Of a stretch of DNA of 16,103 nucleotides, positions 532 through 16,103 are shown one piece after another. Source of the DNA: Planctomycetota bacterium (GTDB lineage: Bacteria > Planctomycetota > UBA8108 > UBA1146); contig JAYZBV010000058.1 in assembly GCA_036338595.1 (NCBI GenBank), positions 1 to 16,103 of the forward strand. The letters are read 5' to 3'. A program made the translations under genes and the position numbers. The notes beneath the pieces are model-generated. The model was not told the origin of the DNA and did not search any database. It saw nothing but the letters and a program-made list of their open reading frames with translations. Position 1 is the first letter of the stretch. The number at the start of each line of letters is the position of its first letter.

Positions 532-2424
532 CTACCTCCGACCTGCCCTGACGGATCTCCTGAACGCTGATTTCCCACCGACGATCGGCAGTTCGAGCGA
601 AGTGGCATCGAGATCGACGCTCAACTCGGTGCCCGGCTCGGGCCACAGCGTGAAATCTCGGTCGCTCGAGAAGATCATCAACCCGAGGCGTTGGCCGACC
701 GGGATGATCTGATCGTCCGGTTGCAATTCAAAACTCAACTCGTAAAACTTGCCCGGTTCGAGCGGCTCGCTGTCGGTCAACGACTCATGATTCTGCGGAT
801 CGGCCCAACCTCGGGTGACGATGTTGCTGGTGATCTTTCGAGTCGATTCATCCCACGGCAGCGAAACCAACCAGACGGACAGATTTGCCGCCGGTTTGCT
901 ACTGGCGAGACGGATGTTGAGACGGGCAAGTCCCGACAGGTGCAGTGGTGCCCGCAATTCGGGCGTCGTGAACAGCAGCCGGTGCTCCGACAGCCTTGCT
1001 CTGGCCAGTTCCTCGCCGCTCACAGAAGCATCATCGATGAGCGTTGAGACACCCTGTTTGCCACGGCTCGAGAGCGACAGCGTACCCGGTCGCCCCTCCC
1101 TGTTGCGAGGATGCAGAGGAACAGGCTTCGCCTTTGGATTCGGAAAGTCGGCATATGCAGTGGGCTCGCTGCGCTCGTCATCTTCACGAACGATCCACGC
1201 TTTGGGACCGTTCTCGACGCCGTTTTTCACGCCGTAGAGATAGTGACTGAACCAGCGATTCATCATCTCCAGCGGCGGTCTGCCGCCGTGTCCACCCTGG
1301 TGGTAGTAGATCTGAGCGGGGATGCCCATCTTGCGGACGGCGTTGTAGATGCGCCAGCTGTGCTCCGGCATCACATTCCAGTCATTGAAGGCATGCGCCA
1401 TCAACATCGCGGCTCGCATCGGCCCAAGATCGTTGATGTAATCTCTTCCGGCCCAGAACTCGTTGTAATCCCCGGTCTTGCGATCAAAGCCCATCAACAT
1501 CTCTTCATCTCGCACGTTGCAATCGCAGTACTCCCGTCGCTCGGGATCGCCACTATTGATCCAGTCGTACAGAACATCGATGTCCTCGCCGATGTAGCCA
1601 CCGGGATGCCGGACCAGACCGTGCGAACGGTAATAGTGATAGTAGGACGTGTTGGGTGCGATGGGGATGATCACCTCTAACCCCTCGACGCCGGTGGTCG
1701 CAGCAGCAAGCGGAATCGTGCCGTCGTAGGAAGTGCCAGTCATACCCACTTTCCCGGTACACCAGGTGGCGACCACTTCTTCGTCGCCATCGGGAGTCGT
1801 GTAGCCGCTGGCACGACCGTTGAGCCAGTCGATGACCGCCTTCGGACCCAGCGACTCGTTGTCACCACCGACCGTCGGGCAGCCTTGCGAAAGGCCAGTA
1901 CCCGGAGACGCCGAGTGCACCACGGCGAAGCCTCGCGGTACCCAGCGCTCGATCTGACGCTCGGACATCAGTGGTCGCTTGCTCTGATATTCCATCCGTG
2001 GCGGAGACTCGTGCATCGGCGGCGTCTGACCGACCTCCTGTCGTGGGTCCCAGGAGTACTTCGCATCGTTGGCACCGGTTCCAGAGAAGTATGGGCTGGA
2101 CTCGTAGATCACCGGGACCTTGAGACCCTCTGTCTTGGTCTGGAGCTGTCGGGTGACATCGACGTGCATGCGGTCGAGTTTGCCATCCCCATCGGTATCG
2201 AAGGTGGTCTCGACCCACAGATCGTGTTGGATCCACTGCTCTGCGTCAGCGAACTCCTCGACGATCTGGGCCTGGCCATCCTTGAACAGCGCTCGTGCAG
2301 GTTTCGCCTGTTGCGACTGTTGCGGATTCGCAGCCAGGGGTAGCCGATGCACTGTGCTGGACTGGCACCCGAGAAGGACCAGCATGCACAGATACGCCAG
2401 GCACTGGATGAAAAACGAAATCAT
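532..2424 (-). CDS. pepX: Xaa-Pro dipeptidyl-peptidase (peptidase S15, CocE/NonD superfamily), probable lipoprotein
   Basis: 630 aa. WVETTFDTDGDGKLDRMHVDV N-terminal motif, nucleophile GTSYDG, HAFNDWNV (Asp), HQGGHG (His), C-terminal TRGWADPQN...LEPGKFY PepX_C-type domain. Lipobox-like LLGC after a hydrophobic stretch. Confidence 0.88.
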   Translation of the reverse strand: MISFFIQCLAYLCMLVLLGCQSSTVHRLPLAANPQQSQQAKPARALFKDGQAQIVEEFADAEQWIQHDLWVETTFDTDGDGKLDRMHVDVTRQLQTKTEGLKVPVIYESSPYFSGTGANDAKYSWDPRQEVGQTPPMHESPPRMEYQSKRPLMSERQIERWVPRGFAVVHSASPGTGLSQGCPTVGGDNESLGPKAVIDWLNGRASGYTTPDGDEEVVATWCTGKVGMTGTSYDGTIPLAAATTGVEGLEVIIPIAPNTSYYHYYRSHGLVRHPGGYIGEDIDVLYDWINSGDPERREYCDCNVRDEEMLMGFDRKTGDYNEFWAGRDYINDLGPMRAAMLMAHAFNDWNVMPEHSWRIYNAVRKMGIPAQIYYHQGGHGGRPPLEMMNRWFSHYLYGVKNGVENGPKAWIVREDDERSEPTAYADFPNPKAKPVPLHPRNREGRPGTLSLSSRGKQGVSTLIDDASVSGEELARARLSEHRLLFTTPELRAPLHLSGLARLNIRLASSKPAANLSVWLVSLPWDESTRKITSNIVTRGWADPQNHESLTDSEPLEPGKFYELSFELQPDDQIIPVGQRLGLMIFSSDRDFTLWPEPGTELSVDLDATSLELPIVGGKSAFRRSVRAGRR

Positions 2425-2453
2425 GTTGCGGACTCCCTGATCAACGACCCCTG

Positions 2454-2474
2454 GTAATGATCCCCGTAATGATC
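2454..2474. repeat. 9-bp direct repeat GTAATGATC x2 (12-bp period) in the divergent pepX/DPP IV intergenic region
   Basis: GTAATGATC at 2454-2462 and 2466-2474, 30-50 bp upstream of the pepX start. Confidence 0.5.
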
Positions 2475-2765
2475 ACCGGGCATTGAGGCCCGGATCGGTG
2501 CGGGGGTCGAAGAGCCTTATGGTTGGGGCCCGGGCCCTGCGATGCAATACAGGTCCCCCGCACAGAAATCGCCATTTGTATGCTCATCGACACGATTCCA
2601 AGGGGATCGCTACGCCACGGCGGGCCATCGGGATCGAAAAGGACCGGGAACTGCTACCGGCGATGTCGCCTGCCTGTACTTGACGCATGCTCCATCTCGG
2701 TCGACCATCACCGCTTGCTCAATCCGAAATTCAGGCATAGTGCAGCAGCACCAAAGGAGTCCTCG

Positions 2766-4859
2766 ATGCGTTCCCATTCGAACTTCCCGGGGTTAGTTCT
2801 GGCCATGATCCTGGCCCTGTTCAGCGTCGATGTTGTCACTGCAAGCAGCGCAGATCCGGATCCGCGAGCAGGGCTCGTCACTGCCGTCGAATGGAGTGAG
2901 GATGGGCAGTACCTTTCCTACACCAACCTGGGAACCCGCCATCGAATTCACATGATGACAGGTGTGCGGGAAGATCTTGGCAAGGCAAAGGATGTCGATG
3001 AGCCTCCAAGGCGCAGAACTCGACGGGGCCGCGGCGGCGGTGGTGGTGGCCAGACCGGCACCTATGTCGGTCGACCCACGCGGGGTCGTCAGTACACCCA
3101 GGTCGATTCCCCCAATGGTCGCTGGGAAGCGCATTACGAGAAGTGGAATGTCGTACTCAAGGAAAAGGACACCGGCGAGTCGATCGCCGTCACCATCTCC
3201 GGAAATGAAGATATTCACTACGGCACTGCCAGCTGGGTTTACGGCGAAGAACTGGGGCAAAACCGAGCGATGTGGTGGACGCCCGATTCGCAGAAGCTGC
3301 TTTTTTACAGGTTCGATGATACCGGTGTGCAACCGTTTCACCTCGTGACCGGCTGGTCAAAGTTCAATACCGTTCACTACCCGGAGAACTACCCCAAGGC
3401 CGGTGCCAAGAATCCCGGCGCCGAGTTGATGGTGTACGATCTCGCTTCCCAGAAAATCACCCGTATCGATGTCGGCGGTGGCTCCGAGGAATACATCTAC
3501 AACATCCGGACCTCTCCCGATGGAGCCGTGATGCTGGTCAACTGGACCGATCGATTGCAACAACACCTCAAGGTGATGGCGATCGATCTCGAAACAGGAG
3601 ACTGCCGTCTGGTGGTCGAAGAGGAGCAGGAGACCTGGCAGAGCAACAGTCCCAGCATGCGCTACCTGGCCGACAACCAGCGCTTCATCTGGACCAGCGA
3701 GCGCTCCGGGTTCAGCCACTACGAACTACGCAATCTAGATGGCGAACTGGTCAACAATGTAACGAGTGGAGACTTCCAGACTGCTGGCATCGACTTCGTG
3801 GATGAGGAAAAGGGGCAGATCGGTTTTCGCGCTTACAGCTCGCAAAAAAACCCCTACTACATGCAGTATCACATCGCCGACCTCGATGGAGAAAACCACC
3901 GCCGCGTCACGACCCTTGACTTCCATCACTCAATTTTCCATCTGTCTCCCGATAAGAAGTGGCTCGTCGCCCAGTACGAAGAGGTCAACACTCCACCATC
4001 CACGGCCCTCTACAGCACCGATGGAAGACTGGTCGCCAAGCTGGCCGAGTCTGATCCAGCGGCTGCTGCCAATATCGCCGAGATGTTCAAATTTCGCTCC
4101 AGCGATGATCAGCATGACATCTATGGCATCCTCTACAAACCGAAGGACTTCGATCCGACCCAGCAGTACGCCATCATCAACTCTCTTTATGGTGGCCCCG
4201 GTTCCAATGAGATCTCGGCGCGCTACGCACCAAACCCTCGTTCAGAGAACAATCGTGGTTACCTGGTGGTCAAGGTCAACAATCGTGGCACTGGAAATCG
4301 AGGCAAGGCGTTCCTCGGCGCGGCCTACCTGCGCCTGGGAGACATCGACATCCAGGATCATGCCGATGCGATCCGGATGTTGCGTGAGCGCCCCTATGTG
4401 GACGGTTCGCGCGTTGGCATCGTCGGGTTTTCCTACGGTGGATACATGTCAGCGATGGGAATTCTGAAACATCCAGATGTCTACACCGCAGCGGTCAACG
4501 GTTCGGGAGTCACGGACTGGCGCCACTACGACACCATCTACACCGAGCGCTACATGAGCACTCCCCAGCTCAACCCGGATGGCTACGACATCGGGCGCGC
4601 CACACGCGAGGATTACGTCGAAAACTTCAAGGAGGCGGGAGGGCACCTGTTGATCATGCACGGAATGGTCGATGACAATGTGCACCCCAATAATGCCTTC
4701 CAGTTGATCGACGCTCTCGACAAGGGGGGAGCCCCGTACGAGAGTCGCTTCTTCCCCAACAACGGTCACGGTCTCGGGCGCGGAGCCGGATCGACCCAGT
4801 GGGAGTTCTTCGACAGGGTACTGAGACCCGATTTCAGGGGCCGGAGAACCTCTCTTTGA
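2766..4859 (+). CDS. Dipeptidyl peptidase IV-like serine peptidase (S9B), secreted
   Basis: DPP IV propeller motifs (WVYGEEL, WWTPDS, YPKAGAKNP), YGGPGS, nucleophile GFSYGG, YDTIYTERYM, HGMVDDNVH (Asp), NNGHG (His). Start reassigned to ATG 2766, which follows SD AAGGAG and begins a signal peptide (MRSHSNFPGLVLAMILALFSV). Confidence 0.92.
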   Translation: MRSHSNFPGLVLAMILALFSVDVVTASSADPDPRAGLVTAVEWSEDGQYLSYTNLGTRHRIHMMTGVREDLGKAKDVDEPPRRRTRRGRGGGGGGQTGTYVGRPTRGRQYTQVDSPNGRWEAHYEKWNVVLKEKDTGESIAVTISGNEDIHYGTASWVYGEELGQNRAMWWTPDSQKLLFYRFDDTGVQPFHLVTGWSKFNTVHYPENYPKAGAKNPGAELMVYDLASQKITRIDVGGGSEEYIYNIRTSPDGAVMLVNWTDRLQQHLKVMAIDLETGDCRLVVEEEQETWQSNSPSMRYLADNQRFIWTSERSGFSHYELRNLDGELVNNVTSGDFQTAGIDFVDEEKGQIGFRAYSSQKNPYYMQYHIADLDGENHRRVTTLDFHHSIFHLSPDKKWLVAQYEEVNTPPSTALYSTDGRLVAKLAESDPAAAANIAEMFKFRSSDDQHDIYGILYKPKDFDPTQQYAIINSLYGGPGSNEISARYAPNPRSENNRGYLVVKVNNRGTGNRGKAFLGAAYLRLGDIDIQDHADAIRMLRERPYVDGSRVGIVGFSYGGYMSAMGILKHPDVYTAAVNGSGVTDWRHYDTIYTERYMSTPQLNPDGYDIGRATREDYVENFKEAGGHLLIMHGMVDDNVHPNNAFQLIDALDKGGAPYESRFFPNNGHGLGRGAGSTQWEFFDRVLRPDFRGRRTSL

Positions 4860-4950
4860 GGCATCGACAGCGCTGATCGGCAACATCTGGCCTCCTCGGA
4901 CGTGTTATTGCACAACCGATCAGGACCTGTGGGGTTACCACCGCACCCGG

Positions 4951-4956
4951 TATAAT
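4951..4956 (+). promoter_or_regulatory. Candidate sigma70 -10 element for the arylsulfotransferase/flavoprotein transcript
   Basis: Perfect TATAAT in a GC-rich intergenic region, about 30 nt upstream of ATG 4985. No convincing -35 at 17 bp spacing. Confidence 0.3.
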
Positions 4957-4984
4957 CGATGGTTGGATCGGCAATCTTCAGGGC

Positions 4985-6922
4985 ATGAAAGGTGTGGTGA
5001 TGATCCTCATGAGACGATTCCTCTCCATCCTGTTGGTGGGATTTCCACTGCTCCTCTGCGCTGACGAGGGAGACCAGACGGTCGGTTGGTTCCATGACCA
5101 GATCGCCACTTACGGCGGCTACACCTTCTTCGCCCCTGGTCGCTCAACCACCACCTATCTCGTCGATGGGATCGGACGGGTCGTGCACAGCTGGCCCAGC
5201 AATTTCAACCCCGGCAACTCCGCATACCTTCTCGACGGCGGCGACATCCTCAGAGCTGCGCGCATACCGGGAAACCCACCGATGGCGGCGGGGGGGGTCG
5301 GCGGCCGTGTCGAACGAATCGCCTGGGACGGCACCTTGCTGTGGCAGTTCGAGTACTCCAGCACTCAAGTTCAACATCATCATGATGTGGAGCCACTGCC
5401 CAACGGAAATGTGCTGATGGTCGCCTGGGAATTGAAGACCGCTGCAGAGGCGCTCGCAGCAGGGCGAGATCCCGCTCTACTCTCCGACAACGAGTTGTGG
5501 CCCGATCACATCATCGAGATCGAGCCTACCGGCAATGTCGGTGGAAATATCGTCTGGGAATGGCACGCCTGGGACCATCTCGTCCAGGAGTTCGATCCCA
5601 CCCGGGACAATTACGATGTTGTGGCAGACCACCCGGAGAAGATCGACATCAATTTCGGCGGCGGGGCCAACAATGCCGATTGGCTTCATGTCAACAGCAT
5701 CGATTACAACCCCGAACTCGATCAGATCTTGCTCAGCGTCCCGACTTTTGCAGAGGTCTGGATCATCGACCATAGCACCACCACCGCCGAGGCTGCTGGA
5801 AGCAGTGGAGGAAACTCCGGGCAAGGCGGTGACCTGCTCTACCGCTGGGGAAATCCACGTTCCTATCAGGCGGGTACTTTCGCTGACCAGGTCTTCTACT
5901 TCCAGCATTGCGCCGAGTGGATCTCTCCCGGTCTGCCAGGAGCGGGAAATGTCATCGTCTTCAACAACGGTGTCAATCGGCCGGGAGGAAATGCATCTTC
6001 CTCCGACGAGTTCATTCCTCCCATCGATGCTGCTGGAAATTATGTGCTGAATCCAGGAAACGCATTTGGTCCTGCTGCGCTGGAATGGACCTACATGGCC
6101 CCGGTCCCCACCGACCTGTACGGACGCATTCTGGGTGGAGTTCAGCGACTCCCCAATGGCAATACCATCCTCTGTGAAGGAGCCCACGGCAATTTCATCG
6201 AGGTGACCGACGCTGGCGACGAGGTGTGGCGCTATGTCAATCCCATCGGTCCGGGGGGACCCTACAACCAGGGGCAAACGGTCCCGTCCACTCCCAATGC
6301 TGGCGACAATGCCACCTTTCGTGCACAACGTTACGGCACTTCTTCACCCCAACTTCTCGGTCTCGATCTGACTCCTGGCGCACCCATCGAGTTCTACCCG
6401 ACGCTCGGTGATTTCGATAACAGCGGTACCGTCTCGACTCTCGATGCCAATTGCTTCAGTGCCGTCTTCACCGGACCTTGTTCCAGCGACCCTTGCTCTG
6501 AGCCGATATTTAGCAGCGCGATGGCGTTTTTCGGCGATTTCGATCTCGATGGGGATGTCGATTGCACCGACTGGGACAGTTTTGTTGGCGCCTGGGATGG
6601 TCCCCCTGCCGCTCCTCCCGATCTGGGAGCCTGTAGTAGCAGCGGCGATCCTCAGTTCACTCGCGGAGATGCCAATCTGGATTCGACCATCAACATCGCC
6701 GATGTGGTGACGATCCTCGGCTATCTGTTCCAGGGACAGGGGGCCGATTGCCTGCTGAGCATCGACACCAATGACGATGAATCGAACGACATCAGTGATG
6801 CGATCGCACTGCTCGCATTGCTCTTTGGCGGAGGCCAGAGCTTGCCCGCTCCCTATCCTGCCTGTGGCCCCGATGGGACCCCGACAGGCACCCTCTCCTG
6901 TGAGATCAGCATCTGTCCCTGA
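4985..6922 (+). CDS. Arylsulfotransferase (ASST)-family beta-propeller protein with C-terminal dockerin-like/EF-hand modules, secreted
   Basis: Signal peptide (start may be 5009, MRRFLSILL). ASST-type motifs QHHHDVEPLPNGNVL, WEWHAWDH, DWLHVNSIDY, LYRWGNP, FQHCA, VQRLPNGNTILCEG. C-terminal GDFDNSG/GDFDLDGDVD pair and FTRGDANLDSTINIAD/DTNDDESNDISD pair. Confidence 0.82.
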   Translation: MKGVVMILMRRFLSILLVGFPLLLCADEGDQTVGWFHDQIATYGGYTFFAPGRSTTTYLVDGIGRVVHSWPSNFNPGNSAYLLDGGDILRAARIPGNPPMAAGGVGGRVERIAWDGTLLWQFEYSSTQVQHHHDVEPLPNGNVLMVAWELKTAAEALAAGRDPALLSDNELWPDHIIEIEPTGNVGGNIVWEWHAWDHLVQEFDPTRDNYDVVADHPEKIDINFGGGANNADWLHVNSIDYNPELDQILLSVPTFAEVWIIDHSTTTAEAAGSSGGNSGQGGDLLYRWGNPRSYQAGTFADQVFYFQHCAEWISPGLPGAGNVIVFNNGVNRPGGNASSSDEFIPPIDAAGNYVLNPGNAFGPAALEWTYMAPVPTDLYGRILGGVQRLPNGNTILCEGAHGNFIEVTDAGDEVWRYVNPIGPGGPYNQGQTVPSTPNAGDNATFRAQRYGTSSPQLLGLDLTPGAPIEFYPTLGDFDNSGTVSTLDANCFSAVFTGPCSSDPCSEPIFSSAMAFFGDFDLDGDVDCTDWDSFVGAWDGPPAAPPDLGACSSSGDPQFTRGDANLDSTINIADVVTILGYLFQGQGADCLLSIDTNDDESNDISDAIALLALLFGGGQSLPAPYPACGPDGTPTGTLSCEISICP

Positions 6923-6934
6923 ACGAGGAGGCTC

Positions 6935-8323
6935 TTGAGCACCGAACGGGAAGTGTTGGTGGTCGGTGGCGGTCCGACCGGCTCCATCGTTGCCACGATG
7001 CTGGCACAAAGCGGCCACCAGGTACTGCTCGTGTGCGAAGAGCGACGCGAGGGCGGATTGCCGGTCGAGACGGTGGTTCCCGGTGCGAGCACCACCCTTG
7101 AACGCCTGGGACTCTCCTGCGCAGTCGGTGAGTGCGCCATTCCAGGACCTGCTCGCCATGGTCGATGCTGGTCGAGTTCCGCACTCGACATCGAGGATCT
7201 CGATGACTCCCAGCGCGGTTGGCGATTCCTCCGTCCTGCTCTCGACCGATGGCTCAGAGCGCGCGCCAGGGAATCTGGCGTCGAGGTGATGCAAGCCACG
7301 CGCGCAACGAGTCCCTTGCCGATGACTGGCTGCGGCGAGGTGAAGCTGGAGCAAGCGGGGCGCACCATCACGATCGAAACGGGCCTCGTGATCGCTGCGA
7401 CCGGCCGAGCCTCGGGATCGCCACTGCTACCGGTCGAGGTGGTCGATCGCCTTCCCGATATGATTGCCATCAGCACCGTCGTCGACGGTACGCCCGCCGA
7501 TGCGGATGCATCGGTGGTGGAGGCGGTCGCTGAAGGGTGGATCTGGTGGCTTCCCTTCGCCGATGGAAGATCGAGCCTGGCACTCTTCTGTGATCCGGCA
7601 GAGGTCCGAACTCGAGGTCGCGATGCGGTGTGGACCTCGGCGATGAGCGCAGCTGTGGGCCCCGCCGCCACGGTCGAGTCGGCCCGGTTGCGTGGCACGC
7701 TGGCCACCGCTCGGCTGCATCGGGCCACCGGGAACCTGTTGCTGGCCGGAGACGCCATCAGCGCCATCGATCCCCTCTCCAGTCAGGGACTGGAGAAGGC
7801 ACTGGTCTCGGCAGAATCGACCGCGATGGCCGCTCGAACGGTACTGATCGGAAACTCCGATCTGGAAACGATGGTCGAGGCTCGTGGGCGCTGGGAGCGG
7901 CGCCTGTTCCGGATGCACCGACAGCGAGCTGTCGATCTGTATCGCTCTGAAGCTCGCTTCCCCGAACACCCCTTCTGGAGTACTCGTCACCTACTGGCGG
8001 AATCCAGGTCGCCGGAGTCGTCGGTGCCTACCGGCCGACTCACCCCTGCTTCCGATCTGCTGCAGTCGCCGCGCTGGGTCCCCGATGGGGATCGACTGGT
8101 CGCCCGCGATGGTCTGCGCCTCTCCAGCAGTGACGAGGAATCCATCGATCAGATCGGATCGATCCCGACCGGAGTCCTGATGGAACTGGTCGGAGACGGC
8201 ATCGAGATGCGGCATCTGCACCAACGAGTCGCCGAAGTGCCGTACTTCATCGACCAGACTCCCGACAGTCTGAGGAAAATCCTGCAGGAGATGTGTCGTC
8301 TCGGATTACTCGTCGAGGGTTAG
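6935..8323 (+). CDS. qhpG: FAD-dependent monooxygenase, probable QhpG-type Trp hydroxylase for CTQ biogenesis (LodB/halogenase-like fold)
   Basis: TTG start after SD GAGGAGG. Rossmann VLVVGGGPTG, IAATGR, GDAISAIDPLSSQG, YRSEARFPEHPFW, plus a small C-terminal extra domain. Abuts qhpE. The gene symbol rests on fold plus context. Confidence 0.72.
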   Translation: MSTEREVLVVGGGPTGSIVATMLAQSGHQVLLVCEERREGGLPVETVVPGASTTLERLGLSCAVGECAIPGPARHGRCWSSSALDIEDLDDSQRGWRFLRPALDRWLRARARESGVEVMQATRATSPLPMTGCGEVKLEQAGRTITIETGLVIAATGRASGSPLLPVEVVDRLPDMIAISTVVDGTPADADASVVEAVAEGWIWWLPFADGRSSLALFCDPAEVRTRGRDAVWTSAMSAAVGPAATVESARLRGTLATARLHRATGNLLLAGDAISAIDPLSSQGLEKALVSAESTAMAARTVLIGNSDLETMVEARGRWERRLFRMHRQRAVDLYRSEARFPEHPFWSTRHLLAESRSPESSVPTGRLTPASDLLQSPRWVPDGDRLVARDGLRLSSSDEESIDQIGSIPTGVLMELVGDGIEMRHLHQRVAEVPYFIDQTPDSLRKILQEMCRLGLLVEG

Positions 8324-8943
8324 CGACGGCTGGCGAGGTAGCCGGTCAAATTCGCGGCAGCCAGGCTGACCCCCGATAGGTTTGCCGCCGCAGGAAGCCG
8401 CGGCAGATCGCGCGGGTGAGGCGATGCGAACCAGACCTTCCGGTCACCCTGAGTTCTCTGCTGCGGCTCATTCCTGGCGAGTGAATCATCGACGAGCACA
8501 CCGTGGCACCCCGGTAGCATCCCTGGATAACAGGGCAACTCTCCGATGGCGGCGGGAGCCACCACCTCTATTCCTCTCTCCGTTGCCTTCGCCAGCATCT
8601 GTTCGAGGTCTCCGCATCGGGAAGGGCGGGTCGTCCCCAGGCTCAGGTTGATCCACTGCACGTCACTGGAGATGGCGTGATCGAGTGCTGCGAGTAACCG
8701 GGGAAAGGGGCATCGGGGTTGGTCCCTGAAAATTCTCAGCGACAAGATGGTGCTGCCGGGTGCCAGGTCGAGGATCGCTGCAGCGGCGCAGGTGCCATGG
8801 CCGAGCCGATCGGATGGATCTGGATCGTCGATCCACTGGTCATCATCATCGAGGATCGGTCCATGGATCACCTCACCTCGATCAAGGATGTGAGGATGCT
8901 GGTCGTTGACGCCACTATCGAGCAATGCGATGGAGACGGTCAT
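8320..8943 (-). CDS. qhpE: Small subtilisin-like (S8) serine protease, QhpE-type leader peptidase
   Basis: 207 aa, no signal or propeptide. Triad motifs IALLDSG (D), LGHGT (H), SGVSLAA (S), plus INLSLG. ATGA overlap with the qhpB stop at 8940-8943. Confidence 0.88.
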   Translation of the reverse strand: MTVSIALLDSGVNDQHPHILDRGEVIHGPILDDDDQWIDDPDPSDRLGHGTCAAAAILDLAPGSTILSLRIFRDQPRCPFPRLLAALDHAISSDVQWINLSLGTTRPSRCGDLEQMLAKATERGIEVVAPAAIGELPCYPGMLPGCHGVLVDDSLARNEPQQRTQGDRKVWFASPHPRDLPRLPAAANLSGVSLAAANLTGYLASRR

Positions 8944-10070
8944 TGCCAGACGCGATACAGCCAGCCCTCGAGCTCGCCATCCATCTCGACCGTCTTGAGG
9001 TACTGGTGAGTTCCATCATAGATCACCAGTTCATGACCACGCCCGGCGAGATATAACTTGCCCCCATCCGGAGAGATCCCGGCGAGGCGCAGGCCGTTTC
9101 GGCTGGGGACGCGCGTCTCGAGTTGCTTCGAACCATCTTCGAGGCTGTAATTGACGAATGTGATGATGGGGTCGACTCCATTCTCCTGCCCCCCACCGCC
9201 GCCACGCCAACCTCTGCCTCCGGTTCCCACGGCTCGCTTTCCATCCCAGGTCACATATCCCGGACTCACCGGTGGCCCCCACTCCTGTCGATGCGCCACT
9301 TCCATCGTCGTCAGATCCAGTTCGAGCACACCGCCGATGCGACGGTGGGAGTGCACCGGGTCCGCCATCGTGTAGAAGAGACGATAGCGTTCCTTGTCCT
9401 GGCCGTGGAGCAGATCGGTGCGTCCACTGACCTGGAATCGACCCATGCCACTGTAAATCGGCGTCGACAGATCGATCTTGGCCACCTCCTTGTTGGTCTC
9501 GGGATCGATCACCTGAAAGTCTCGACCAAAGACATGCCAGAACTTCCCATCGGGACTGATCTGTGCACTCCGGCGCAGGACAGATGGCAGCTCATCCATC
9601 CGCTTGAGAACCTTCTTCTCGACGGTGTCGTACAGAAGCCACTGCGATTTCTCGATCTTGTAGTGATCTGGCTCCAACTTGACCCGGTCGATCTGCACGT
9701 ACCAGTTTTTTGAGGCGGGGATCTCCCGGACATTCTCGACCCGGATTAACCAACCGGTCTCGTTGAAATCATGCTCTTCGATGACGGAATTCCCGATCAG
9801 ATCGAGCACCTCCACCTTCGATTTCTTTCCGGTGATCAAGAAGGCGCGTGTTTCGTCATGTGAGTAGGTGGTGCCATGACAGACACCGTGTTTGGTCTGG
9901 ATCCTGGCCGCCTCTTCATCTTTCTCGATGTCGTACTTGATGAGGAAGTCGGGCCACATGCGGATCCAGAAGTAGGCCCGCTTTTCGGCGGGTTCCTTCA
10001 TCTCCGGTTCCTGTGCCGTGGAGACGGTGGAAAGCAGCATCAGGATCAATAGCATCGAAGCGCGTTTCAT
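8940..10070 (-). CDS. qhpB: QHNDH beta subunit-like beta-propeller protein
   Basis: 376 aa from ATG 10070 (SD GGAGG overlapping the qhpC stop). Sec signal MKRASMLLILMLLSTVSTA. Propeller repeats (ISPDGKFWHV, ISPDGGKLYLAG, ELVIYD...YLKTVEM). Sits directly after qhpC as in qhpADCB operons. Sequence is divergent, so the call leans on synteny. Confidence 0.78.
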   Translation of the reverse strand: MKRASMLLILMLLSTVSTAQEPEMKEPAEKRAYFWIRMWPDFLIKYDIEKDEEAARIQTKHGVCHGTTYSHDETRAFLITGKKSKVEVLDLIGNSVIEEHDFNETGWLIRVENVREIPASKNWYVQIDRVKLEPDHYKIEKSQWLLYDTVEKKVLKRMDELPSVLRRSAQISPDGKFWHVFGRDFQVIDPETNKEVAKIDLSTPIYSGMGRFQVSGRTDLLHGQDKERYRLFYTMADPVHSHRRIGGVLELDLTTMEVAHRQEWGPPVSPGYVTWDGKRAVGTGGRGWRGGGGGQENGVDPIITFVNYSLEDGSKQLETRVPSRNGLRLAGISPDGGKLYLAGRGHELVIYDGTHQYLKTVEMDGELEGWLYRVWQ

Positions 10071-10080
10071 CGCCAACCTC

Positions 10081-10398
10081 CTAGGGAAACACCAGGTCGA
10101 TGGAAGCCCAGTCCTGGACAGGAGCCCCACACGAGCGGGACCAGTCGGCAAAATTGGTCAGTGCATCGGGAACCTGGGCAGGCCAGTAGCAGGAGTGGTA
10201 GCAGTCGTAAAGGTCGCGTTCGATGGGAGTGCAGAGACCGTAGGTGCCCCCACCACTGTCGACCTCCCAACCCGGTGCCAGTTGGGTGCTGCAGCCGAAG
10301 GGGATGCGTTCGGCAAGAGGTCCTACTGAATCCTCTGCACCGGCAAACCTCTCTTCGATCAATCTCGCTTTCTGATTGATGGCGCGGATGTGCTTCAT
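10081..10398 (-). CDS. qhpC: QHNDH gamma subunit precursor (CTQ-bearing, thioether cross-linked peptide)
   Basis: 105 aa from ATG 10398 (SD GAGGTG, ATGA overlap with the qhpD stop). Leader MKHIRAINQKA, core GCSTQLAPGWEVD...GLCTPIERDLYDCYHSCYWPAQVPD...DW...VFP. Spacings C-x8-E, C-x5-D, C-x7-D and C-x5-W match the QhpC cross-link and CTQ pattern. Confidence 0.96.
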   Translation of the reverse strand: MKHIRAINQKARLIEERFAGAEDSVGPLAERIPFGCSTQLAPGWEVDSGGGTYGLCTPIERDLYDCYHSCYWPAQVPDALTNFADWSRSCGAPVQDWASIDLVFP

Positions 10399-11879
10399 CG
10401 AATCACCTCGTCCTTCTCGATGACCGGCACGGGAGGAACCGACCCTGATTCGTAATTTCGGAGGAACTCCGGATTGCCCAGGGAGATGGCCGCATAACTT
10501 CGCAACCCGAGATCGGTCCACGCACGGATCCAATCGCAGTAGTGCAAATTAGGCGCGGCGGGATCCTTGTAGCGGACATACGCCTCGTGGTAGCAGCCGC
10601 CACTACAATGGGGCCGCGCAAAACACTGATGACAGGGGACCTTCTTCGATATGTGAGTCGATTGCAGAAACTCGCCACGTTTCTCCTCATCGATTCCGTC
10701 CTCGATGTTGCCGAGACCATGTTCACCCGATTCAACGAAGCGATGACACAGCCCCAGTTCTCCCTCGGTGGAGACCCCCATCAAGCCCAATCCGGCTCCG
10801 CACGGGTGAGCCTTGTTGATGCCCTGATGGATCTCCTGGATCAGATCGTGCAGGTTCGAGAAACCATGTCTCTTTCCAGCGAGAGCCGCCTCGACATATT
10901 GCCCTGCGAGCGTCTCGAAGTCGGCCAGGATCTTGCCCATGTGCCCCTCACCAAGGGCGTACTCCCGATCCTCGGCACTGGTGACCGGGGCAAAACCGAC
11001 CGAATCAAAACCGATCTCGTCGATCAGGTGCTGGAAGGTCTCCTGTACCGAAGCCATACCTGCGGTGAGAGTCACCCTGGCGCCGACCGGTCGACCCTGT
11101 GGACGGTTCTTCTCGAGGAACTTGCGGACTCTCGGCACGATGATGTCGTAACTGCCGCGACCGCTTGAAAAGGTACGATGGCGATCCTGATCACCCTTGT
11201 TGCCATCGATGCTGATATTGACGCCAAATTTGTGCTCGACCAGAAAATCGATCACCTCGTCGGTCAACATCGTTGCGTTGGTGGTCAGAGAAAAAGCCAC
11301 GAACCGACCCAACTCACGTCCACGACGCACAGCATGTTCAGTCGCGTCACGGATGGTACCAAAGTTGAGTAGTGTTTCTCCCCCGAAGAAGGTGATGGAA
11401 ACACCGTTGCGGCCCTCTGAACTCTTCAGCAAGAAGTCGACCGATTTGCAGGCGGTCTCGGAAGTCATCATCGGCAATCGTGGCGTGCCATCGGGCTTTT
11501 TCTGGTTGGATACACGGTCTTCGCCATATTCGTAGCAGTAGGTGCAGGACAGATTGCACTTGTTGGTGACATTGAGCACCAGCGTCGCCAGTGGATACGG
11601 ACTCGGAGGTTTCTGCTCGGGAGGGGCAGCCGGAGCACCGACCGGCCTCAGCATCCCCATCGCCGCCAGCTCGTCAAAGGCCTCTCGCACCTGCGGCTGC
11701 CGCTCCTCATCCAGGGTCTCCAGCCAGGGTCCCGGTTCGGCCCCCTCGGCAGAGGAAAAGTTCTCGATGATCTCCGAGGTCACATCGTCGAGCTGGACCA
11801 CGGCAGCGGTCGGCGTGACATAGGCAAACGGCACGCCGTCACTTTCGAATCGATGGAAGAGTGTGGTATGAAATTTCAT
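10395..11879 (-). CDS. qhpD: Radical SAM/SPASM thioether-forming maturase
   Basis: 494 aa from ATG 11879 (ATGA overlap with the qhpA stop). N-terminal RRE-like region, CNLSCTYC, FFGGETLL, TTNATML, ISIDG, SPASM cysteines CGAG...CHRF...CHQCFARPHCSGGCYHE...HYC. Confidence 0.95.
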   Translation of the reverse strand: MKFHTTLFHRFESDGVPFAYVTPTAAVVQLDDVTSEIIENFSSAEGAEPGPWLETLDEERQPQVREAFDELAAMGMLRPVGAPAAPPEQKPPSPYPLATLVLNVTNKCNLSCTYCYEYGEDRVSNQKKPDGTPRLPMMTSETACKSVDFLLKSSEGRNGVSITFFGGETLLNFGTIRDATEHAVRRGRELGRFVAFSLTTNATMLTDEVIDFLVEHKFGVNISIDGNKGDQDRHRTFSSGRGSYDIIVPRVRKFLEKNRPQGRPVGARVTLTAGMASVQETFQHLIDEIGFDSVGFAPVTSAEDREYALGEGHMGKILADFETLAGQYVEAALAGKRHGFSNLHDLIQEIHQGINKAHPCGAGLGLMGVSTEGELGLCHRFVESGEHGLGNIEDGIDEEKRGEFLQSTHISKKVPCHQCFARPHCSGGCYHEAYVRYKDPAAPNLHYCDWIRAWTDLGLRSYAAISLGNPEFLRNYESGSVPPVPVIEKDEVIR

Positions 11880-14395
11880 CGCTGGTTCCATTTGTATTGA
11901 TCCCACTTGACATAGATGGGCACCGTGACCAGCAGGTGTCCACGAGCTCGGAACTGTTTTTCGATCATCTTCGGTGGGCCCTCATCGATGGCGACCTCCG
12001 GGGCCGCAACCTGTTGCGCTGATCCGTCAGCATCGGAATCTGCAGCGGAATCACCGTCCGAATCTCCTTCGCTGCCATTCTCCGATTCGTGTCCAGCCTC
12101 ATCGTCATCTTCTGCATCGTCATCATCTTCATCATCTTCGTCATCCGAGTCTTCGTCTTTCTTGACTTCCTTGCGTTCGGGAATCGTCAAGGTGCAGGTT
12201 GCAACGACATAGACGTCTCCGATGTTGTTGGCATTGAAGCGTCGGTCGGGGTTGGGGCCATCGATGGCAGGGGTAAAGACCCCGGTCTCTGCATCGAGTT
12301 CACCCACAAATTGAATGTCATCATCACCCGGTCGAATCGGAAACTCCTCGAGGTGCCATCGCACCGGTACCGTCATCAGATCGACATCGTCCTCGTTGAA
12401 TGGAATGCCGTCGGGTCCTCGGGTGAAGGCGACCGCCTCGAAGCGTTCCAGTTGCTTGGGCCGAATCTTGCCGCCGACCCTGGAAAATCCAGGGTTGGGG
12501 CGAATTCGAATGCCATCGATGGTGTCGTAGAGGGTGATCTGACGGGGGCCCTGATGGATCCGGAAATCGATCGCCCGTTGGCCCAGCGGAATCCCGGCGG
12601 CGACATCGACCTGGATGTTGACCCGGGTGTCATCCTCTCGCTGGACAGCAGTGACCGTGAGTCCATTGCCGAGGTGGAAATCACCGGGTTCGATCTGTTC
12701 GGGGAAGCCGCATCCGATGATCTCCAGCCGGTTGCCGGTCGATGGCACCGCCATCTCGCCGCCGAGTACTCCCAGGATGGTCGGGGTCTCACTGGCTCGT
12801 AACAGTTCGATCTCGATGCCGAGTTCGTTGTATTCGCCGGTGAAGAGTCGCCCTTCCATCCGGGTCCACGATTCATCGAGCAACAAGACTTCCTTGAGGG
12901 ATTCCAGTTCTCCGGGAGCGGTGCTGGTCGATCTGCCCCTCCAGGAGTGGCCCGCATAGAAGAGGCCCGTACCGTTTCGAACCACTGTTCGCCCGTTGGC
13001 TCGCAGCCAGGTCCACTTCGATTCGTATTCTCCGGTGGCGATCCGCTTCAGATCGAGAGTGCCACGTATCGGTCCGCGACCCACCTCGTGCCCCTTGACG
13101 ATCCAGCGCCCATCGAGCGGCACTTCTCTTTTTTCCTGATTCCAGTGGCGCCACTCTTCACTGAAGAGACCCTGTTCCTTGGCCAGAGTGGCAAGCACCT
13201 GATCGGCCCGATCCTGACCTCGCCCTCTCGATGAGGAAGATGAGCCTCCTTCTTCCGATGAAGACTCGCCTTCACCTCGTTCGCCGCCGGAACCCCCACC
13301 ACGGCTTCTTCGACCCTGAAACGACTGGAAATCGACCAGTGGATAGAGCGCCAGGTGAGTCGCCTTGAGCAGTTTCCATTCCTGGTCGTCGCGGCGTTCC
13401 GATTTCACACGACCGAGGGTGTGACAGTCGGCGCAGGTTTCGCGCAACGCATCTTCTTCATCTTCCTCGGACCAGTGGACCCTGCGCTCGCTCTCGTACA
13501 TGCCGATGCGTGCCTCCGATCGGGACAGACCATGCTCCTCGGAAAGGTATCGCACCGCCTCCTTCGCCTCTTGGGGGGTGAGGGAGACGAAGTAGAGCCT
13601 CGCCATCCGCTTGATCGAGATCTCCCACGCCTCGGGTGACTTTCTCATGTAGGAGATGCGAGTCATCTTGCCATCGTCATCTCTGGCGTGGCAGACCACG
13701 CAGCGCTCCTCGATCAGAGGGTGATGCACCGGAATTCCCTCGCGCGGCTTCTTCTTCCTGCTCGCGCCCGATCTCTCCGAGCGATCAGAACGCGATCCGC
13801 GTGCCTCTCCCTCGCTGCTCTGCTCATCTTCATCGTCATCTTCTTCATCATCACCTTCAGACCCGGCGTCTTCGGAGCCAACCTGCGATTCGGTGGCGAC
13901 TGCCGGATCACCTGCCTGCGCCTGGCCCCGTCCCCGTCTTCCCGGACGATTGCGACGCCGATCGCCGCGCTCGGATCCTTCCCGGCGAACTCGCCTGACC
14001 TCGGTCTGCTCGGCGTCATCCTGGTCCTCGGCGGCATCCTGGGTGGCAGCATCGGGCGGGGCGGGAGGCGTCTCGGCATCTTCAGGAGCATCCTGATCGG
14101 GAGTGTCGGCTTCCGATCCAGGATCCTGAGGAGATCCACTGGCAAGTTTTCGGTAGTAATCGGCGATGGCAGAGGGCATCGAGGCCACCCTCTCCTGACC
14201 GGAGGCGAGGTCAGGGTCCAACGCTGGCTCCGAAGCGGTCGGACCGTCATCGGGGATGATGCTCTGCGCTGGCGACGAGGCGACGGTCGACGCTGTTTCC
14301 TGGTACGCGATCCCGTAACCGACTGCCACGACCAGCAGCGTCCAGATCAGCAGATTCCAGATGGAAGACCTGGGGCCGTTCGATGCTGGCGGCAT
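11876..14395 (-). CDS. qhpA: QHNDH alpha subunit (diheme cytochrome c, beta-barrel and Ig-like domains), extended
   Basis: 839 aa, SD GGAG. Heme motifs CVVCH (13688-13702) and CADCH (13421-13435). RISYMRKSPEAWEISIKRM (Met ligand region), ATHLALYP (His ligand region), WRG, ERFEAVAF...GPDG, GVFTPAIDGPNPDR...NNIGD, HLLVTV. Confidence 0.93.
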   Translation of the reverse strand: MPPASNGPRSSIWNLLIWTLLVVAVGYGIAYQETASTVASSPAQSIIPDDGPTASEPALDPDLASGQERVASMPSAIADYYRKLASGSPQDPGSEADTPDQDAPEDAETPPAPPDAATQDAAEDQDDAEQTEVRRVRREGSERGDRRRNRPGRRGRGQAQAGDPAVATESQVGSEDAGSEGDDEEDDDEDEQSSEGEARGSRSDRSERSGASRKKKPREGIPVHHPLIEERCVVCHARDDDGKMTRISYMRKSPEAWEISIKRMARLYFVSLTPQEAKEAVRYLSEEHGLSRSEARIGMYESERRVHWSEEDEEDALRETCADCHTLGRVKSERRDDQEWKLLKATHLALYPLVDFQSFQGRRSRGGGSGGERGEGESSSEEGGSSSSSRGRGQDRADQVLATLAKEQGLFSEEWRHWNQEKREVPLDGRWIVKGHEVGRGPIRGTLDLKRIATGEYESKWTWLRANGRTVVRNGTGLFYAGHSWRGRSTSTAPGELESLKEVLLLDESWTRMEGRLFTGEYNELGIEIELLRASETPTILGVLGGEMAVPSTGNRLEIIGCGFPEQIEPGDFHLGNGLTVTAVQREDDTRVNIQVDVAAGIPLGQRAIDFRIHQGPRQITLYDTIDGIRIRPNPGFSRVGGKIRPKQLERFEAVAFTRGPDGIPFNEDDVDLMTVPVRWHLEEFPIRPGDDDIQFVGELDAETGVFTPAIDGPNPDRRFNANNIGDVYVVATCTLTIPERKEVKKDEDSDDEDDEDDDDAEDDDEAGHESENGSEGDSDGDSAADSDADGSAQQVAAPEVAIDEGPPKMIEKQFRARGHLLVTVPIYVKWDQYKWNQR
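12098..12160 (-). repeat. Imperfect trinucleotide low-complexity tract encoding poly-Asp/Glu within qhpA
   Basis: TCA/TCG/TCT triplets on the + strand encode DEDSDDEDDEDDDDAEDDDE. A similar tract lies near 13826-13855. Confidence 0.7.
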
Positions 14396-14643
14396 CTGCT
14401 CACTCCGATCCAGTTGACGGGTTCTTCATCCTGCTACCCCGGGATCTGAACCCGACATCAGGGCACCTGCAATACGGGTAAGACGGCAATCATGGGTCCA
14501 TGACTGGCCGGGACACCCTCCTCGAAACTGCCCCTTGAGTATCCCAGATCGATGCTCCGGGCAACCCCCGAGAATTGGAGTCCCCCCTCGCATTCGATGC
14601 TACGGAGGCTTCTCATGAGGGTTGGCCAGATGGGAGCAAATCG

Positions 14644-16103
14644 ATGACGAGCGGTGACCCGGCGATGACCCAGAGATCCACGCCGAACAGCTACCGCCTG
14701 ATCGGTTTCCTGGGCCCGTATGTCGGCAAACTGGCCCTGGTGCTGGGGGTGCTGGTCCTCACCACACTGCTCGGATTGTTGCAGCCCTTCTTCATCCAGC
14801 AGTTGATCGACGAGGTGCTCAACAAGGGGCGAGAAGACCTGATCTGGATCTTTCCGATCGCGATCGTCGGCATCGCCGGCCTGCGTTTTTCCCTGGGCGT
14901 CGTTCATGCCGTGATGTATGCCGCCGTCACGGCACGTGTGCTGCTCGACATGAGGGTCGATTTCGTCGAGCACCTGCAGCGGATGTCGCCTCGTTTCTTC
15001 AGCGGGACTCGCTTCGGAGATGTCATCATCCGGCTCAATCGTGATCTGACCCAGTTGCAGGAACTCTCGACGGGAGCGCTGCTCGGATTCATCAGCCATT
15101 CCCTGACCCTGGTCGGAGTCGTGATCGCTGCCCTCCTCTACCAGCCGACCCTCTTTCTCATCTGTGCCATCCCGTTTCCCGTGGCACTGGCGATCGGATA
15201 CGCATACCGCGGACCGATCCGTCGCCTGACCGAGAGCCTGCGCCAGCTGGCAGCGGATCTCGCTTCCCAGGTGATGGAGACGCTGTCGGGGATTCGCACC
15301 GTCAAGACGCACGGACGCGAGCGCGGCGAGCTGGCTCGCTTTCTCCACATCGGCCATCAGATGGTGCGCAAGATGCTCTCCTTTCAACGCACACGAGCGT
15401 TCGCTTCGGGGCTTCCGCGCCTGTGCCTGGTCGGCTCCAGCGCCATCCTCTACGGCTACGGTGGACTGCTGGTGGTGCGAGGAGAGATGCCGCTCGGAGT
15501 GCTGGTGGCGCTCGGTCTGTACCTGGGGATGGCGTTCGCTCCCCTCCACGCACTGGTCGAACTGTACCTGCAACTGGTCCAGGGCAAGGTGGCACTGGAC
15601 CGTGTGCGTGAGATTCGCGAGCAATTGCCCGAGGTGATCGACGACGAGGGCGCGAAGCGTTGCGATTCCATCTCCGGAGAGGTCGAGTTCGAATCGGTCC
15701 TCTTCAGTTACCAGCCCGATCGACCGCTACTGCAACCACTCAGTTTTCGACTGGAACCCGCAGAGACGGTCGCCCTGGTCGGTGCCAGTGGCTCGGGAAA
15801 ATCGACCATCGTCGACCTGCTGCTCCGTTTTCTCGATCCACAGCAGGGGCGAATCCGCATCGACGGCACCGATCTCCGAGGGCTGGAGTCCGCCAGTTAC
15901 CGCCGACATCTGGCGCTGGTCCCGACCGAGACCTTTCTCTTTCACGGCTCCATCCGCGACAACATCCTCTTCGGCAGACCCTCTGCCACCGATGAAGAAG
16001 TGCGCCAGGCGGCGATCAAGGTGGGCCTACCGGCAGCGCTGGGACCCGCCTCCGAGGGGCTCGAGACGATCGTCGGGGAACGGGGCGAACAGCTCTCCGC
16101 CGG
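14644..16103 (+). CDS. qhpF: ABC exporter, fused TMD-NBD half transporter, probable QhpF; 3' truncated by the window edge
   Basis: Not in the ORF track because it has no stop in the window. ATG 14644 after GGGAG (alternative start 14665). Multiple hydrophobic helices, METLSGIRTVK, Walker A GASGSGKST (15781-15807), FLFHGSIRDNI, ends at IVGERGEQLSA. The gene symbol is from context. Confidence 0.8.
   Translation, partial: MTSGDPAMTQRSTPNSYRLIGFLGPYVGKLALVLGVLVLTTLLGLLQPFFIQQLIDEVLNKGREDLIWIFPIAIVGIAGLRFSLGVVHAVMYAAVTARVLLDMRVDFVEHLQRMSPRFFSGTRFGDVIIRLNRDLTQLQELSTGALLGFISHSLTLVGVVIAALLYQPTLFLICAIPFPVALAIGYAYRGPIRRLTESLRQLAADLASQVMETLSGIRTVKTHGRERGELARFLHIGHQMVRKMLSFQRTRAFASGLPRLCLVGSSAILYGYGGLLVVRGEMPLGVLVALGLYLGMAFAPLHALVELYLQLVQGKVALDRVREIREQLPEVIDDEGAKRCDSISGEVEFESVLFSYQPDRPLLQPLSFRLEPAETVALVGASGSGKSTIVDLLLRFLDPQQGRIRIDGTDLRGLESASYRRHLALVPTETFLFHGSIRDNILFGRPSATDEEVRQAAIKVGLPAALGPASEGLETIVGERGEQLSA

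Follow-up and report, generated by a model that had tools for sequence, protein, structure and literature searches.

Radical-SAM thioether cross-linking of a full-size enzyme subunit has its standard example in QhpC, and to our knowledge all that is known of this protein comes from two proteobacterial enzymes. The window, by which we mean the whole 16,103-nucleotide stretch of planctomycetal DNA analysed here, encodes a QhpC with an additional cysteine. Reading and translating the minus strand gives cysteines C36, C56, C66, C70 and C90, with D96 six residues beyond the last of them, exactly as a sequence-only reading of the window had listed. That reading went on to propose that the maturase QhpD may close a fourth ring between C90 and D96. 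What C90 is bonded to, if anything, is the question that this locus raises.

A five-cysteine QhpC in a qhp gene cluster

The membership of the protein in the QhpC family is clear. It scores 101.7 bits on PF08992 (cut-off 25) and 123.1 bits on NF037958 (cut-off 50), with residues 1-105 aligned to positions 1-104 of the 104-position model, and phmmer matches it to the two solved gamma chains 1jmx_G (2.3e-20) and 1jju_C (6.8e-20). Its closest relative among the best 80 of 599 loci, at 98% identity, is encoded in a Planctomycetota metagenome-assembled genome. The alignment to both solved chains is free of gaps across residues 34-105, with an offset of 29. In this alignment C36, C56, C66 and C70 correspond to Cys7, Cys27, Cys37 and Cys41, W72 to Trp43 (the CTQ tryptophan), and E45, D62 and D78 to Glu16, Asp33 and Asp49, the three known thioether acceptors. 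The window protein and the solved subunits thus share a Pfam and NCBIfam family, four cysteines, the tryptophan and the acceptors. They differ at mature position 61, where C90 faces Ala61 in both crystallised proteins, while D96 faces Asp67 in both. The statement in the sequence-only reading that this position is not Cys in P. denitrificans is therefore correct. The clade of the window also departs from that of the studied enzymes nearby, with C-G-A-P against A-P-S-A at residues 90-93, ERD against EAD at residues 60-62, and Asp against Gly at residue 65.

Table 1. Features of the window, in order along the forward strand; the coordinates of qhpC include the stop codon
Feature	Position	Strand	Basis or detail
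probable qhpG, flavin monooxygenase	6935..8323	plus	best NCBIfam match NF049967, 191 bits, below cut-off 240; PF01494
probable qhpE, leader peptidase	8320..8943	minus	best NCBIfam match NF049966, 124 bits, below cut-off 165; PF00082
probable qhpB, beta subunit with signal peptide	8940..10070	minus	gene position; relative in 76/81 sources
qhpC, QHNDH gamma-subunit precursor	10081..10398	minus	105 residues
QhpC leader and mature part			leader about residues 1-29; mature part about 30-105
W86-W97 segment of QhpC, WSRSCGAPVQDW	10108..10143	minus	spans the proposed 7-residue ring C-G-A-P-V-Q-D
D96 codon (mature Asp67), candidate acceptor	10111..10113	minus	gac
C90 codon (mature Cys61), fifth Cys	10129..10131	minus	tgt
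cross-link and cofactor residues C36, E45, C56, D62, C66, C70, W72, D78	10165..10293	minus	alignment to 1jju_C and 1jmx_G; 10293 is the first base of the C36 codon, 10165 the last base of the D78 codon
qhpD, radical SAM/SPASM maturase	10395..11879	minus	TIGR03906, 536 bits, cut-off 453; PF04055
qhpA, dihaem alpha subunit	11876..14395	minus	TIGR03908, 378 bits, cut-off 274; PF09098, PF09100, PF14930
probable qhpF, ABC exporter	14575..16101	plus	PF00664, PF00005; divergent from qhpA; runs off the window end

Judged from gene content, the window holds a complete qhp cluster, with qhpA, qhpD and qhpC joined by probable qhpB, qhpE, qhpG and qhpF genes (Table 1), a set common to the window and the studied QHNDH systems. 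The likely ATG of qhpD at 11879 overlaps the qhpA stop codon, and the qhpD stop codon overlaps the qhpC ATG, each as ATGA. The CX3CX2C motif of QhpD and seven further cysteines are kept in 71-72 of 72 loci. Where this QhpD has G467, Cys is found in 51 of the 72 QhpD relatives that come from five-Cys loci. The probable QhpB is a weak match to TIGR03907 (29.9 bits, cut-off 223), and a search of PDB sequences with it found no match. Relatives of qhpF occur in 52 of 81 sources.

QhpA matches 1jmx_A and 1jju_A in sequence. Unlike the alpha subunit of solved QHNDH, it carries long low-complexity extensions, and at 839 residues it is longer than the solved proteins, which have about 490. An N-terminal extension of about 220 residues consists of a hydrophobic segment and then about 190 residues of low complexity, rich in Asp, Glu, Arg, Ser and Gly, before the dihaem domain begins. 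An acidic insert lies near the C-terminus, at residues ~740-800.

Adjoining the qhp genes, positions 532-6922 of the window encode two serine peptidases (an S15 X-Pro dipeptidyl-peptidase and a DPP IV/S9 protein) and a protein that resembles arylsulfotransferases and matches dockerin weakly. Genes of this part are present in only 2-4 of 81 related loci and are probably outside the qhp cluster. Plasmids of Bradyrhizobium, Nostoc and Streptomyces (L088-L090) carry QhpD-like radical SAM genes at 33-36% identity to the window QhpD; these adjoin ferritin-like or tryptophan-halogenase-like genes, and no qhp genes.

Conservation and distribution of C90 and D96

A Cys followed by an Asp at this distance would mean little by itself. 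Asp accounts for 8 of the 105 QhpC residues, so the chance of an Asp at +6 from any Cys is about 8%. By these numbers the C90-x5-D96 motif alone is within chance, and what goes beyond chance is the conservation of its two residues. In the query together with 120 listed of 204 homologues found, at 50-99% identity, position 90 is Cys in 121/121 and position 96 is Asp in 121/121. The residues between them are less constant, with G82/A35 at +1, A100/S15 at +2 and P76/A45 at +3. C90 is likewise Cys in 79/79 QhpC rows from the best 80 of 599 confirmed genome loci plus the window, all of them Planctomycetota or Acidobacteriota-type records; two partial rows with a gap at this position are left uncounted. 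Variation of C90 among close homologues, which would have refuted the sequence-only reading, is not seen.

For a broader comparison, sequences from two targeted searches and one representative search were pooled, giving an alignment of 354 sequences with 263 near-complete cores, 138 with the Cys and 125 without, a ratio that reflects the choice of searches and not natural frequency. All 138 full-length cores with the Cys carry Asp96; those without it comprise 118 with Asp96, five with Gly and two frameshifted-looking rows (P0150 and P0234). For counts of invariant residues P0150, P0234, P0237 and P0184, which look frameshifted or aberrant, were left out. The canonical residues C36, E45, C56, D62, C66, C70, W72 and D78 are invariant or nearly so among homologues. 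Four acidic residues, and no others, never vary in 128 unique Cys-bearing cores: E45, D62, D78 and D96. Two other acids, D65 and D101, are usual in the close clade and replaced in divergent Cys-bearing members. D101 is invariant in the close clade and Asp in 121/128 Cys-bearing cores, with Thr, Asn, Lys, Gln, Pro or Glu in P0138, P0154, P0147, P0158, P0174, P0145, P0206 and P0210, in none of which D96 is replaced. The tryptophans that bound the segment, W86 and W97, are nearly or fully invariant in Cys-bearing cores and equally invariant in the clade that lacks the Cys.

The fifth cysteine reaches well beyond the close relatives of the window protein. The representative search returned 118 matches, many of them fragments, and an equivalent of C90 is found in divergent lineages (P0138, P0154, P0147, P0158, P0174, P0206, P0210 and the P0217 group) down to about 35% identity. 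In P0145 the Cys is present too, and one residue is inserted within the putative ring. The giant repeat proteins P0153, P0218, P0200 and P0228 were dropped as QhpC relatives, since their scores are sums of weak repeated matches. In P0158, P0222 and P0224 a Thr replaces the CTQ cysteine (Cys37), and the C90 equivalent is kept. Cultured bacteria also have the five-Cys form, namely Edaphobacter modestus DSM 18101 and Novosphingobium sp. RL4. In the latter, an unannotated qhpD-qhpC-qhpB set lies at 6529-9481 of NZ_CP141945.1, an essentially unannotated 1.8-Mb replicon. Its QhpC is of the Acidobacteria-like five-Cys type, unlike the proteobacterial four-Cys type, and its QhpD falls among Acidobacteriota sequences, a pattern suggestive of horizontal transfer.

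A further clade has seven cysteines (P0217, P0221 and P0238, together with P0362-P0388, which lie outside the pool), with sources that include Candidatus Glassbacteria and Deltaproteobacteria. Its members have a second Cys beside Cys7 (28/30), the C90 equivalent (28/30) and a Cys at position 101 (27/30). Cys101 sits in a conserved L-C-[TA]-[VI]-P-D tail and forms a C-x3-D motif like that of PapB substrates.

The Cys is missing from a proteobacterial clade that includes both studied enzymes. This clade was sampled with the proteobacterial-type QhpC P0144 as query, which found 758 sequences. Among the 120 listed, 119 have four cysteines and none has Cys at column 90, where Ala is commonest (A80, K25, S7, V3, E2, and Q, N and I). 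Column 96 is Asp in 115 and Gly in five, the Gly rows falling in two separate subgroups. As to co-conservation of C90 with D96, which the sequence-only reading had proposed to check, Asp96 accompanies the Cys in all 138 full-length cores that have it, and Asp is usually kept where the Cys is absent. By these counts the two residues are not evolving in lockstep.

A FastTree of 251 unique cores was built from 70 columns with the Cys column removed; its support values are mostly weak. The 119 sequences without Cys form one group in it. The Cys state changes four times on this tree, of which two are the aberrant rows P0150 and P0234 and one is the singleton P0127 (Cys to Tyr). The Planctomycetota/Acidobacteriota-type clade (124 rows) is split off, with support 96, from 127 rows that combine the no-Cys group with Cys-bearing lineages. 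A QhpD tree was also built, with SCIFF and LodA-associated maturases to root it. The four proteobacterial QhpDs form a clade there (support 100), and the root lies outside this clade; the outgroup maturases attach to it by a join that was flagged as long branches meeting. The branch that divides the five-Cys group from the rest has a support of only 41. The most parsimonious reading, with modest support, suggests a single loss of the Cys in one proteobacterial clade. The five-Cys QhpC is apparently ancestral and the form with the widest phylogenetic spread, and the textbook three-ring enzymes appear to come from one clade that lost the Cys.

The case for a possible fourth thioether and its rivals

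The accessible text of PMC8172795 describes three Cys-to-Asp/Glu thioethers and CTQ in QhpC, the thioether pairs being spaced x8, x5 and x7. C90-x5-D96 lies within this range of x5 to x8, and its would-be donor Cys is N-terminal to the acceptor. The closest known counterpart is the Cys27-Asp33 thioether, a bond from sulfur to the beta-carbon in which the Cys is again N-terminal, five residues intervene, both partners are invariant and QhpD is encoded next door. That C90 and D96 have the same spacing as C56 and D62, as the sequence-only reading remarked, holds in both the translation and the alignment. The ring sequences differ, C-T-P-I-E-R-D for Cys27-Asp33 and C-G-A-P-V-Q-D for C90-D96, and the first bond has been seen in crystal structures whereas the second is only proposed. 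According to the accessible part of PMC7876137, Asp33 also occupies a place like that of the active-site Asp conserved in other tryptophylquinone enzymes.

Several observations point towards a cross-link. C90 is invariant and lacks a disulfide partner, and no full-length Cys-bearing core is without D96. D96 is also the only acid, besides the three known acceptors, that never varies in Cys-bearing cores. The order of donor and acceptor and the x5 spacing match the Cys27-Asp33 pair, and an intact QhpD with the remaining maturation set is encoded alongside qhpC. Finally, replacement of D96 by Gly is confined to sequences without the Cys (5/120 against 0/138). We consider that QhpC may well contain a fourth intramolecular thioether, to which C90 contributes the sulfur and, most likely, D96 the beta-carbon, and give this reading a probability of roughly one half. 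The existence of the bond, the choice of D96 as acceptor and the role of QhpD as its maker are all things that we infer.

By analogy with the three known QhpD cross-links, the QhpC leader would dock on QhpD in the cytoplasm. QhpD would then cleave SAM, and the 5'-deoxyadenosyl radical would take a hydrogen from the Asp96 methylene. Coupling of the resulting carbon radical to the Cys90 sulfur would close, towards the C-terminal end of QhpC, a ring of seven residues, the size of the Cys27-Asp33 ring. Four rings (C36-E45, C56-D62, C70-D78 and C90-D96) would in this scheme precede the action of QhpG, QhpE and QhpF. Afterwards, QhpG would hydroxylate W72, QhpE would remove the leader, QhpF would export the protein and C66 would join W72 to give CTQ.

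Installation of several cross-links in one substrate has precedent. The accessible text of PMC8172795 reports that the ranthipeptide maturases PapB and SCIFF ScfB/CteB install several non-alpha thioethers, from Cys to Asp, Glu or Thr, per substrate. The window QhpD falls below the cut-offs of both corresponding models, with 260 bits on that of PapB (cut-off 340) and 229 bits on that of the SCIFF maturase (cut-off 425). It differs from those maturases in being a QhpD equivalog that acts on an enzyme subunit, not on a peptide natural product. In the searchable QHNDH, QhpC and QhpD literature, as far as its accessible text extends, we found no description of a fifth QhpC Cys or a fourth thioether, only of three thioethers and CTQ.

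Other observations weaken the pairing of C90 with D96. Since D96 is kept in 115/120 sequences without the Cys and in both solved proteins, it has another, Cys-independent role. Helices are often N-capped by Asp or by Gly, and an N-cap role of D96 could explain the Asp/Gly pattern without any cross-link. With about one real change of Cys state on the tree, the contrast between Gly and Asp carries little statistical weight and is suggestive only; for the same reason, co-evolution of C90 and D96 is not statistically demonstrable. The known selectivity of QhpD also counts against the pairing, as the enzyme does not join every Cys to a nearby acid. Cys37 stays unlinked by QhpD although an Asp stands two residues on in the solved sequences (accessible text of PMC8172795 and PMC7876137), and Glu31, which lies between Cys27 and Asp33 in those sequences, is skipped as acceptor (accessible text of PMC8172795). 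AlphaFold2 models were too poor to place C90 relative to D96, both for the precursor (84-row alignment, mean pLDDT 51.8) and for mature QhpC (144-row alignment, mean pLDDT 46.8).

In a different reading, C90 is a free thiol conserved through a buried subunit interface or through a redox, sensing or maturation role, such as a transient contact with an auxiliary cluster of QhpD. No C90-D96 bond is required if D96 is conserved with or without the Cys, and Cys37 is at least one Cys that escapes linkage by QhpD in the proteins studied (PMC7876137, accessible text). In the seven-Cys clade Cys101 could pair with C90 in a disulfide, a hint that C90 may be a free thiol elsewhere. Tight burial is difficult to reconcile with the Lys, Glu, Gln and Asn that the no-Cys clade tolerates at this site. 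The full spectrum there (A/K/S/V/E/Q/N/I) speaks for a solvent-accessible position, at which an invariant free periplasmic thiol would be unusual. A second free thiol beside C66 would presumably also be liable to add wrongly to the Trp-quinone and to be oxidised in the periplasm, and no metal- or cofactor-binding pattern co-occurs with C90 in the conservation of the 128 unique Cys-bearing cores. On balance we regard a free thiol as rather unlikely, while taking it seriously.

Cysteine pairing within QhpC finds no room, because the other four cysteines all have known partners; the remark in the sequence-only reading that C90 lacks an intramolecular disulfide partner is sound. Of the five cysteines four are committed, which leaves C90 without the conserved partner Cys that marks a structural disulfide. 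As an unpaired Cys in a periplasmic protein, C90 might instead form an intermolecular disulfide, to QhpA, to QhpB or between two gamma subunits. The conserved cysteines of QhpA (72 sources) are confined to the two haem CxxCH motifs, at 68/68 each, and the other two cysteines of the window QhpA are kept in 3/71 and 7/57 relatives. QhpB has no conserved Cys in 76 sources, the single one of the window protein being kept in 7/73. A conserved disulfide from C90 to either large subunit is thereby excluded. Gamma-gamma pairing sits poorly with the description of QHNDH as an alpha-beta-gamma heterotrimer in the accessible text of PMC7876137, and we consider an intermolecular disulfide of any kind highly improbable.

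A cross-link within QhpC from C90 to a partner other than D96 seems improbable as well, if less extremely so. The candidates are D101 and, as a second Cys-Trp link, W86 or W97. That D101, Asp in nearly all Cys-bearing cores, becomes Cys in the seven-Cys clade hints that residues 90 and 101 may be spatial neighbours, and the constancy of the two tryptophans would suit a partner of C90. Yet D101 is replaced in divergent Cys-bearing members where D96 never is, and W86 and W97 are just as invariant where there is no Cys to join.

What a fourth ring would mean for the family

The five-Cys QhpC, as judged from its sequence, is a real and strongly conserved variant of a known family, and an extra cross-link in it is plausible. 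A test of the thioether hypothesis should cost little, since co-expression of QhpC with QhpD, intact mass measurement and iodoacetamide labelling are already established for the Pseudomonas proteins (accessible text of PMC7876137). If C90 proves to be free, an invariant unpaired periplasmic thiol beside a quinone cofactor will need an explanation of its own.

A wider picture, which we put forward tentatively and at somewhat less than even odds, is that the QHNDH gamma subunit in its ancestral form, also the most widespread one, carries four radical-SAM rings and CTQ, with the three-ring protein as a reduced proteobacterial form. Ring number would then vary across the four-, five- and seven-Cys clades, the last adding a C-terminal C-x3-D, and QhpD would staple proteins into multiple rings with more flexibility than the studied examples reveal. 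If C90 is cross-linked, most of the diversity of the family, in Planctomycetota, Acidobacteriota and several divergent lineages, lies one ring above the textbook enzyme. The cross-links that QhpD makes in order would then number four, with the studied enzymes as the exception.
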